Below are positions 33,001 through 36,000 of a stretch of 64,000 nucleotides of DNA, piece after piece; the stretch's first letter is position 1; each line of letters starts with the position of its first letter. The position numbers were made by a program. The DNA is taken from assembly GCF_009931435.1 (NCBI RefSeq), contig NZ_CP043414.1; one strand, given 5' to 3'. This stretch comes from Escherichia coli. Its GTDB lineage: Bacteria; Pseudomonadota; Gammaproteobacteria; Enterobacterales; Enterobacteriaceae.

Positions 33001-36000
33001 CTTGAGGCGCTGTTTGACCCGTGGTTAAGCCCTGTTCAGGCGCGGGCGTTATTACAACAACGTCCGGCGAAGGGCTGGGAAGATGTCGATCAGTTTCTTG
33101 CACAGCCGCTACTTGCTGACGTCGATGAACGTACTAAAAAACAGCTAAAAACCGTCCTGAGCGTGGACAGCAATTACTTCTGGCTGCGTTCAGATATCAC
33201 CGTGAATGAGATTGAACTGACGATGAATTCGTTAATTGTCCGCATGGGCCCACAACACTTTTCTGTTCTCAGGCATCAGACAGGAGAAAGTGAGTGAGTT
33301 CCATGCTTGAGATTTTTTTCCCGCTTTGCGCCGCTGATTCCATCCGTTGGCAGCGTCGTACCGCCGACGTGGAGTGCGGCATCTGGCCTGACGTTGCTGA
33401 CGAACGTCTCCAGCAATGGCTGCAAACTGATGCGATTCGACTCTACATTCCCGGCGAATGGATCAGCGTCTGGCAGGTTGAACTGCCTGATGTCCCCCGC
33501 AAGCAGATACCAACTATTCTGCCCGCCTTACTGGAAGAAGAGCTGAACCAGGATATCGACGAACTGCATTTTGCCGCGTTGAAAATCGACCAGCAACAGG
33601 CAACCGTGGCAGTGATTCACCAGCAGCATATGCGCAACATTGCGCAGTGGTTGCAGACAAACGGCATTACCCGCGCCACCGTTGCACCGGACTGGATGTC
33701 CATTCCTTGTGGCTATATGGCTGGCGATGCGCAACGGGTTATCTGCCGCATCAATGAGTGCCGGGGATGGAGCGCCGGGCGGGCGCTGACTCCGGTCATG
33801 TTCCGCGCACAGTGCAATGAGCAGGATTTACCGCTTTCGCTAACCGTGGTCGGCATTGCTCCGGAAGAACTGTCTGCATGGGCTGGTGCGGACGCCGAAC
33901 GCCTGACCGTTACGGCTCTGCCCGCCATTACCATTTATGGCGAACCGGAAGGGAATCTGCTAACAGGGCCGTGGCAGCCTCGGGTCAGCTACCGAAAACA
34001 GTGGGCGCGCTGGCGGGTGATGATTCTGCCGATATTGCTGATTCTGGTTGCGCTGGCAGTGGAACGGGGCGTGACGTTATGGAGCATCAGCGAACAGGTG
34101 GCGCAAAGCCGCACCCAGGCGGAAAAAAAGTTCTTAACACTGTTCCCGGAGCAGAAGCGGATTGTGAATTTGCGTTCCCAGGTGACGATGGCGCTGAAAA
34201 AATATCGCCCGCAGGCCGATGATACCCGGCTGCTCGCCGAGTTGTCAGCGATAGCCAGCACCCTGAAATCAGCATCACTTTCCGACATCGAAATGCGTGG
34301 TTTCACCTTTGATCAAAAACGCCAGACGCTCCACCTTCAGTTGCGGGCCGCGAACTTTGCCAGTTTCGACAAACTGCGTAGCGCACTGGCGGCAGATTAT
34401 GTTGTGCAACAGGACGCGTTACAGAAAGAGGGTGATGCGGTTTCCGGCGGCGTAACGTTGCGGAGGAAATAACATGTTACGCGATAAATTTATTCACTAT
34501 TTTCAGCAATGGCGTGAACGCCAGTTAAGCCGTGGCGAACACTGGCTGGCACAACACCTAGCGGGGCGTTCTCCGCGCGAAAAGGGCATGTTACTGGCTG
34601 CGGTAGTGTTCCTGTTTAGTGCCGGATATTACGTCCTCATCTGGCAACCGCTGAGCGAACGGATTGAGCAACAGGAGACGATGTTGCAGCAACTGGAGGC
34701 AATGAACACCCGACTGAAGCGCGCCGCGCCGGATATTATTGCAGCGCGAAACTCCGCCACAACAACGCCTGCGCAGGTATCGCGGGTCATCAGTGATAGT
34801 GCTTCCGCGCACTCGGTGGTCATCAAACGGATAGCCGAGCGTGGGGAGAATATTCAAGTCTGGATAGAACCTGTGGTGTTTAATGACCTGCTGAATTGGT
34901 TAAACGCGCTGGATGAAAAGTATGCGCTGCGGGTGACACAAATTGATGTCAGCGCTGGTGAGAAGACTGGGATGGTGAATGTGCAGCGGCTGGAGTTTGG
35001 ACGGGGATAAAGTATCAGGAGATTAATATCAATAAAATTACTCTCGTTAACGTGGCGAGAGTAATTCCCCCAGCCCTTATAAGCTAAGTTTTTTCGTGAA
35101 GGTTATTGTCAGATCCAAAAGCAAAAACCCGCCTTGTGGGCGGGTTCTTTAGAATAGTGGTGCCCGGACTCGGAATCGAACCAAGGACACGGGGATTTTC
35201 AATCCCCTGCTCTACCGACTGAGCTATCCGGGCAACGGGGCGCATTAAACCTGATTCGCCTCGTCTCGTCAATCAAATTTCTTCAATTTACTGCAGACTG
35301 CACAATCTATCATCACTTTGCCGCTATTGCACGCATTGTCAGGCAAACCAGGCGGTCCAGGCGGCGGAAAGCGGCATTGCCAGAAGCAATGCTGGAAGCA
35401 TGTTGACCACCGGGAACATTTTAATGCCACAAATGCGTAATCCGGTTGCCAGCAGCAATAAACCGCCTACAGCGCTGAAGTCTGCCATCATCGACGGTGT
35501 GGTCAGCGGTAATATCAGCGCGGCAGCCCACGCCAGCGTTAACTGGATGATCAGTAATGGGATACTAATTACCGACACCGCAATACCCAACGAGCAGGCG
35601 AAGATCATCGCCGTAAAGAAATCGAGAAATGACTTGGCGATTAAAATACTCGGATCGCCGGTCATCCCTTCGTTCATCGCCCCGAAGATCCCGGTGCCGC
35701 TGGCGCAAAACAGGACAATAATCGCGACATAATTCTGAATAAAAGATTCATGCGCTGGCTTCTTACGTGAGTGGCGAAACAGATTTTGCGCTTTGGCGAC
35801 CACTGTATTGACGCCTTTTTCCAGCAGACAAATTTCGCCAATTAGAGCGCCAAGTAGCGTAGCTAAAACCATCGCTGGAAGGTTGGCGCATTTCACCACC
35901 AGTAAAATACCAATCCCCAGCGATGCCAGACCAAAAATAGATGTCATGGAAACGCGGATACGTTCCGGTAAACGTTGGCTGAGCAGAGCGCCGATAACGC

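Follow-up and report, generated by a model that had tools for sequence, protein, structure and literature searches.

An apparently empty pheV integration site beside the T2SS-beta operon in an Escherichia coli chromosome segment

The pheV integration hotspot is very probably in its empty attB state, with no element integrated, in the E. coli segment that we analyzed, a stretch of 64 kb (64,000 nucleotides of contig NZ_CP043414.1; “the window”). A sequence-only reading of this DNA had called pheV unoccupied, and the follow-up bears this out: the window holds one copy of the pheV 3' end and no integrase, it is collinear with island-free E. coli, and its junction is uninterrupted, as in 1537 of 5426 genomes. 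Both the hotspot and its empty state have been well described before, and the case is an ordinary one; apart from an intact secretion operon the layout is that of K-12. The result matters mainly for annotation, in that the segment carries no pheV island; the current understanding of tRNA-associated islands is unchanged.

Organization of the pheV locus

ARAGORN identified a single tRNA gene in the 64-kb window, tRNA-Phe(GAA) at 35158-35233 on the minus strand, and Rfam RF00005 matched it with 68.3 bits (E = 9e-13). We named it pheV, not pheU, because it sits between yqgA/speC and yghD, as in K-12 MG1655. As the gene lies on the minus strand, “downstream” refers to lower coordinates, and the 3' CCA end is at 35158. 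The features around it are listed below from the upstream side.

36355-38574, plus strand: speC, on the upstream side of pheV beyond yqgA.
35339-36046, minus strand: yqgA (DUF554), the conserved gene upstream of pheV; the protein is 99% identical to E. coli YqgA.
35244-35272, minus strand: candidate pheV promoter, picked out by eye from the sequence; -35 TTGACG (35272-35267), 17-nt spacer, -10 TTTAAT (35249-35244).
35158-35233, minus strand: pheV, tRNA-Phe(GAA), intact including the encoded CCA end (ARAGORN and Rfam RF00005).
35158-35180, minus strand: attB core, the last 23 nt of pheV, TTCGATTCCGAGTCCGGGCACCA; one copy in the window.
35150-35157, minus strand: linker CTATTCTA (minus-strand letters), 8 nt between the tRNA 3' end and the terminator, read from the sequence.
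35118-35149, minus strand: intrinsic terminator of pheV, with an 11-bp stem, a 5-nt loop and a U-run (terminator scan, folding and inverted-repeat search).
35036-35066, no strand assigned: inverted repeat of two perfectly matched 11-bp arms around a 9-nt loop; it lies 26 nt past the gspM stop, in a spacer specific to E. coli (repeat search).
34474-35010, plus strand: gspM-beta (yghD), 178 aa, the last T2SS-beta gene, convergent with pheV (ORF, RefSeq collinear locus, and Pfam T2SSM on an identical protein).

The tRNA part of the junction that we used as a query was 100% identical to most E. coli genomes, and the linkage of yqgA to pheV is kept across Escherichia, Salmonella, Citrobacter, Enterobacter, Lelliottia and Atlantibacter. 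Upstream of the tRNA, the arrangement TTGACG / 17 nt / TTTAAT is a plausible pheV promoter. A GC-rich discriminator, GCGCCCC, separates the putative -10 hexamer from the mature 5' end, so that the promoter region runs down to 35237 on the minus strand. This promoter was absent from the output of a consensus promoter scan, which misses it because the -10 hexamer has no A at position 2.

On the other side of the tRNA, the sequence-only reading had placed a bidirectional terminator at a distance of about 10 bp. The terminator is there, after the 8-nt linker: the terminator scan returned a hairpin at 35123-35149 followed by TTTTTGCTTTTGG on the minus strand, and the minus-strand fold has a free energy of -18.8 kcal/mol (z = -4.0; 0 of 200 shuffles as stable). 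Its bidirectionality is structurally plausible, but the plus-strand tail of the same hairpin, TTCTTT, is weaker (z = -1.9), and termination would be clearly stronger in the pheV direction. The hairpin may also terminate the convergent gsp operon. In other genera the stem carries compensatory changes, CCCGCC/GGCGGG versus CCAGCC/GGCTGG.

The gsp operon ends beyond this terminator, as had been read, with the gspM stop at 35010, and the spacer from the tRNA to that stop totals 147 bp. The inverted repeat in the spacer (35036-35066) has a folding z of -3.6 and a U-run after it on the minus strand only, and it is unchanged in other E. coli. We also considered a degenerate island remnant within the 147 bp and rejected it, as the spacer contains no direct repeats and matches that of other empty-site strains at 98.5-100% identity. 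The pheV of the window is a self-contained unit consisting of the inferred promoter, the tRNA, the 8-nt linker and the intrinsic terminator, and it abuts the end of the T2SS-beta operon.

The window contains neither attR nor an integrase

The last 23 nt of pheV are present once, and this indicates that the integration site is empty. No second copy of this sequence was found in the 64 kb with up to 3 mismatches (0 expected in shuffles), nor a second copy of the last 15 nt with up to 2 mismatches. Allowing up to 4 edits, indels included, we found no attR in the 64 kb with the 23-mer or with any of the five published GI-pheV attR variants. The 19-mer and the 15-mer alone gave extra matches at 3-4 edits, which is chance level. 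In keeping with the earlier statement that the window has no obvious duplicated tRNA 3' fragment, the 23-mer and the attR variants at up to 4 edits matched the tRNA only.

The absence of an integrase gene was likewise confirmed for the window. We ran tblastn with four pheV-associated integrases, taken from the pheV junctions of EDL933 (OI-122), an Escherichia species representative and two Salmonella subspecies. The best match in the 64 kb had E = 0.39, which is noise, and no integrase-like coding sequence was detected. There is no intP4 immediately 3' of pheV; the next gene is gspM. A second pheV 3' copy and an integrase remnant were the two findings that the sequence-only reading had named as counting against it, and a search of the window for both turned up neither.

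Comparison with other chromosomes gave the same picture. Positions 1-63547 are collinear with E. coli JNE23-011, whose pheV is island-free, and positions 15049-55262 are collinear with E. coli strain 2020CK-00188. Relative to island-free E. coli chromosomes, no insertion larger than ~80 bp was found in the window. In addition, the sequence after pheV, ACCA followed by CTATTCTA and the hairpin, is the form that Citrobacter, Enterobacter, Lelliottia and Atlantibacter share, and is unlike attL junctions. The CTATT after pheV is conserved in the unoccupied loci of these four genera, while at the attL junctions of occupied genomes the native linker is swapped for island sequence.

As the window has no integrase on the attL side and no attR, we conclude that no element is integrated. 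An attR or an integrase lying outside the window, over 35 kb from the tRNA on its downstream side, would be very unlikely: the collinearity with empty-site genomes is complete, and the native terminator comes right after the tRNA.

It could also be asked whether the empty site is an artefact of assembly, in which an island was collapsed across its short direct repeats. Nothing speaks for this directly. Drafts do often break at these islands, and one draft contig ends 479 bp after gspM; however, a repeat of 19-23 nt leads to contig breaks and not to clean deletions. The junction is, moreover, base for base that of 1537 complete genomes, and the tRNA is followed by its native linker and terminator. 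We regard such a collapse as extremely improbable and retain the empty attB as our reading.

Recombination at pheV would follow the mechanism established for P4-type integrases. Together with the intact 23-nt core, this suggests that integration of an island here remains possible. A P4-family tyrosine integrase would recombine the attP of a circular island with the last 19-23 nt of pheV. Integration would put the integrase gene beside the tRNA (attL), and a partial tRNA copy (attR) would remain at the far end of the island, just before the terminator/gspM spacer.

Empty and occupied pheV sites in other strains

In most E. coli, pheV is occupied by a pathogenicity or genomic island. To place the window among them we used a 221-bp junction query (35040-35260) and counted a junction as uninterrupted when at least 80% of the query was covered in one piece. 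By this measure, 1537 of the 5426 complete RefSeq E. coli genomes (28%) have an uninterrupted pheV-gspM junction, K-12 MG1655 among them. In the remaining genomes the proximal match breaks off at window 35158, precisely where the tRNA has its 3' end, and a separate distal piece takes in the spacer together with 21-23 nt from the end of the tRNA, that is, the attR repeat. Among occupied genomes the distal repeat of the pheV end measures 19-23 nt, and 49 nt for one ICE-like element.

In a published survey, GI-pheV, defined by intP4, occurred in 52% of 2,383 complete genomes and was bounded by 23-bp or 19-bp repeats, and the attR sequences were given (Nhu et al. 2024, PMC11537424). GI-pheV (OI-122 of EDL933, PAI-pheV of CFT073) uses the same tRNA and the same 19-23-nt att core as the attB of the window. 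In contrast, the window has no intP4 beside the tRNA, no attR and no cargo. EDL933 has an integrase and OI-122 after pheV and is missing the whole gsp-sslE-glc region up to pitB, whereas the window keeps gsp and sslE.

The reference empty site, yqgA-pheV-yghD of K-12 MG1655, agrees with the window in gene order, orientation, spacer length (~147-148 bp) and both hairpins. It likewise has no integrase and no attR, and its junction is 97.7% identical over 221 bp. The difference lies in the secretion operon: in K-12 MG1655 an internal deletion fuses gspC and gspL with loss of gspD-K (PMC3707838), whereas the window keeps gspC-M, sslE, pppA and gspS-beta. E. coli W, B, H10407 and E2348/69 resemble the window in having a complete sslE-pppA-yghG-gspC..M set beside pheV, in a region that has been called hypervariable (PMC3707838). 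Unlike the window, H10407 and E2348/69 also carry GI-pheV (PMC11537424, Table 1).

A third arrangement is found in the K1 strain N21 (group 2 capsule), where the kps cluster uses the same pheV-gspM interval. N21 keeps the pheV terminator as far as window 35111; next come an IS110 fragment, ~17 kb of kpsFEDUCS-neu-kpsMT and yghD, and there is no integrase. In the window this interval is nothing but the 147-bp spacer, and kps region 1-3 genes are absent between its pheV terminator and yghD. Because there is no pheV island here, none of the island types of other strains is present, such as the nleB/nleE/espL2 island of EDL933; the kps cluster is absent as well.

Near-identical chromosomes with an island at pheV

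The most direct comparison came from an exact protein look-up with GspM and YqgA, which located CP057959.1 (GCA_013900085.1). This genome encodes the same GspM and YqgA proteins as the window, and its flanks are 99.99% identical on both sides of pheV. Its left flank corresponds to window 24474-35180 (10.7 kb) and its right flank to window 35152-46046 (10.9 kb), each with 0 mismatches and a single 1-nt gap. CP057959.1 nevertheless has, between pheV and the terminator, an insert of ~31.1 kb (record positions 894,247-925,338; size computed from the locus coordinates). The product of its first gene has the domains Arm-DNA-bind_3, Phage_int_M and Phage_integrase, which is the P4-type architecture. 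From the integrase end the island encodes the integrase, a sulfatase and a WYL-domain protein; its distal module is of the usual type, with DUF932, antirestriction, RadC, CbtA/CbeA, DUF4942 and ParDE.

In an alignment of attB, attL and attR, the window equals the left part of attL and the right part of attR joined across ATTCCGAGTCCGGGCACCACT, the attR of CP057959.1. Since CP057959.1 matches both flanks but has an island exactly here, the window shows the matching empty attB. That the two form a clean empty/occupied pair is the only mildly notable point of the locus.

The sequence alone fits a site that was never occupied as well as one that was scarlessly vacated. One possibility is recent occupation: an island like the ~31-kb element of CP057959.1 was excised precisely by its integrase, and attB was restored without a scar. 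P4-type islands are known to excise scarlessly. CP057959.1 has no mismatches in ~21.6 kb of flanks and yet contains the island, and therefore the gain or loss must have been very recent. Furthermore, all five assemblies with the identical GspM allele, among the matches listed, are occupied; in the four assemblies other than CP057959.1 the gsp region is 99.96-99.99% identical to that of the window.

On the other hand, the attR sequences of these five are of at least three types: a 49-nt tRNA fragment, which adjoins a ParA/DnaB ICE-like element, a 19-nt TTTC type and a 23-nt type with a 1-nt deletion. Such a variety of elements among near-identical backgrounds fits independent insertions into an empty ancestor better than an excision, and an empty ancestor with repeated gains is therefore favored. 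The empty arrangement also predominates among 24 examined contigs with the exact YqgA (one locus and 15 similar places, plus one more); four others have different integrases and cargo, and one ends too near pheV to classify. A scarless event would, in addition, leave no detectable trace. We consider recent excision unlikely.

A broader speculation is that this clone has an unusually rapid turnover of islands at pheV, the empty site being a transient intermediate after excision and not a stable ancestral state. It draws on the single ~31-kb difference from CP057959.1 across ~21.6 kb and on at least two further att types in near-identical backgrounds. We find this doubtful, and an empty ancestor that gained islands repeatedly remains the favored history.

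The T2SS-beta operon is not cargo of a pheV island

The secretion genes next to pheV are listed below; gspM-beta is given above.

18377-22957, plus strand: sslE (ORF, annotated length).
23254-24063, plus strand: pppA (ORF, annotated length).
24129-24539, plus strand: gspS-beta (yghG) (ORF, annotated length).
24555-25508, plus strand: gspC (ORF, annotated length).
25538-27598, plus strand: gspD (ORF, annotated length).
27598-34472, plus strand: gspE-L (ORFs, annotated length).

The full set, sslE, pppA, gspS-beta and gspC-M (gspC-M at 24555-35010), reads in one direction with all ORFs intact and ends beside pheV. Each ORF is as long as its annotated counterpart in island-free E. coli, and Pfam T2SS families match the products of 99.99%-identical loci. 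Judged by these ORFs, the window keeps a complete T2SS-beta/SslE secretion system within the backbone.

The sequence-only reading had gone from the empty window directly to the statement that T2SS-beta belongs to the ancestral flank and is not pheV-island cargo. This step does not follow from the window alone, and genome comparisons are needed. They support the second half of the statement. In occupied genomes (strain 130119, CP057959.1 and four other assemblies) attR lies between the distal end of the island and the gspM-side spacer; T2SS-beta is therefore outside the recombination boundaries and is not cargo of a pheV island.

The first half, “ancestral”, applies within E. coli only and fails at the level of the family. 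Within the species, the 24-kb stretch from gspC to yggM is uninterrupted in 860 complete E. coli genomes, and the E. coli W study inferred independent losses of T2SS-beta, not gains, in K-12 and Crooks (PMC3707838). Across genera, the comparison sharpens the notion of an ancestral flank, as the cross-genus unit stops at ~35111 and what lies beyond, T2SS-beta included, is lineage-specific. At the level of the family the conserved unit comprises pheV and its terminator only, to about 35111. We conclude that T2SS-beta is backbone within E. coli, yet itself lineage-specific DNA that lies just past the pheV terminator and probably did not arrive by way of the tRNA att site. It occupies the same point as the capsule locus in other strains.

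One explanation for its position is that the T2SS-beta/sslE block entered the Escherichia lineage horizontally, as an old island lacking an integrase, and went in immediately beyond the pheV terminator; we put the chances of this at about even. The gsp genes have 55-59% GC compared with ~51% around them. Just past the terminator, at ~35111-35113, homology with Citrobacter, Enterobacter, Lelliottia and Atlantibacter ends. The gss-yghU-hyb genes come within 1-9 kb after pheV in several Citrobacter, Enterobacter and Lelliottia genomes, while E. coli has them on the far side of gsp, sslE, glc and pitB. The kps cluster of the K1 strain N21 is inserted at the same point, 35111, and also without an integrase. 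Between strains, gsp and sslE are more divergent (88-97% identity) than the right-hand flank (98-99.4%).

Other Escherichia species also bear on acquisition, as no gsp-beta gene was present in the 2-10 kb available near pheV in their representatives (1.9 kb for E. albertii). These loci are short and mostly hold other elements, however, and do not prove absence. Near pheV they contain T6SS remnants and kps, an integrase, or TetR/MFS genes and then glcB. In Salmonella and in other Escherichia representatives, island-type sequence follows pheV in place of the native linker and terminator. Three further points weigh against acquisition: within the window, neither repeats nor an integrase nor mobility genes mark the edges of the block, its distribution in E. 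coli is wide and its synteny is kept there, and its loss in the outgroups is an alternative.

Sequence divergence around pheV is local

The best identity obtained with our first query was only 96.8%. This figure had hinted at an Escherichia other than E. coli as the source, a reading that we rejected: the right-hand core flank matches ordinary E. coli at 98-99.4% identity, with 99.4% for the trmB-yggM segment, and YqgA is an E. coli YqgA at 99%. We attribute the low value to the gsp/sslE/yqgA stretch, which is unusually diverse, and regard it as a local effect. The right flank is 98.5% identical to that of CP027520, the STEC clinical isolate 89-3506 (PMC10562709). YqgA identities of ~90% in the scan of species representatives belong to other Escherichia species. 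One record among these other-species loci is titled “E. coli”, and its yqgA is 82% identical at the DNA level.

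Diversity and occupancy at the pheV hotspot

The window was compared with other E. coli on both sides of pheV (35158-35233, minus strand). On the T2SS-beta side, sslE (18377-22957) was 88-90% identical to its counterparts, and the gsp genes of the pppA-gspM stretch (23100-35010) were 93-98% identical. Right of pheV, identity in the core flank was 98-99.4%. Diversity is strongly raised on one side of the hotspot, that of sslE and gsp. The gsp genes are GC-rich (55-59%).

The pheV site, empty in the window, is occupied in L079 (GCA_009820115.1, 10537-20537), a locus whose background is 99.98% identical to the window. 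The occupant is an ICE-like element with ParA, DnaB, DUF2786, DUF2857 and ParE-like genes. Its attR, the partial copy of the pheV 3' end at the distal end of the island, is a 49-nt tRNA fragment (window 35158-35206), as compared to the far shorter 19-23 nt of P4-type islands. The pheV tRNA is thus used by at least two recombinase systems.

At the same site, the species-representative record L013 has an integrase together with a T6SS cluster. The yqgA gene of L013 shares only 82% DNA identity with that of the window and clusters with loci from non-coli Escherichia. This record, titled E. coli strain SCPM-O-B-8794, is probably a mislabelled member of a cryptic Escherichia lineage.

Inverted repeat downstream of gspM

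One further element was found between the gsp genes and pheV:

35036-35066, perfect 11-bp inverted repeat (AATTACTCTCG ... CGAGAGTAATT), 26 nt past the gspM stop

The same sequence occurs in other E. coli. As a U-run follows the repeat on the minus strand only, it may act as a back-up terminator that protects gsp against read-through from pheV.

Other variable regions, repeats and genes

Collinearity between the window and E. coli strain JNE23-011 stops directly past speB. From there the two differ (63548-64000), and in the window unrelated AT-rich sequence with the start of an ORF (MRRIDVICKELERLTYGLELSDLAKEK...) replaces the loiP intergenic region, so a further variable junction starts at these positions. 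In JNE23-011, yggM and hemW are separated by a TRAP transporter operon of 3.2 kb that includes one pseudogene; by comparison, this operon is absent from the window (47034-47099) and from strain 2020CK-00188.

BLAST comparison brought out short repeats in intergenic DNA. It showed that the sslE-pppA spacer (22959-23185) is rearranged relative to 2020CK-00188 and that a spacer near yggR/ruvX resembles it at 74-75%. Two elements of about 80 bp (51494-51571 and 57551-57631), 82% like the yggL-yggN spacer, look REP/BIME-like.

The glcB-glcA intergenic region contains an sRNA match:

15927-16148, minus strand, sRNA family C0719 (RF00117), full-length match, 285.6 bits, E=5.6e-74

The gene cluster adjoining yghO (approximately 1-9000) is collinear with JNE23-011, where it is annotated as encoding a fatty acyl-AMP ligase, an epimerase, an acyl carrier protein, a serine palmitoyltransferase (spt), LptF/LptG-like permeases and a YtfJ family protein. 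On this annotation, the cluster is a putative sphingolipid-like biosynthetic set.
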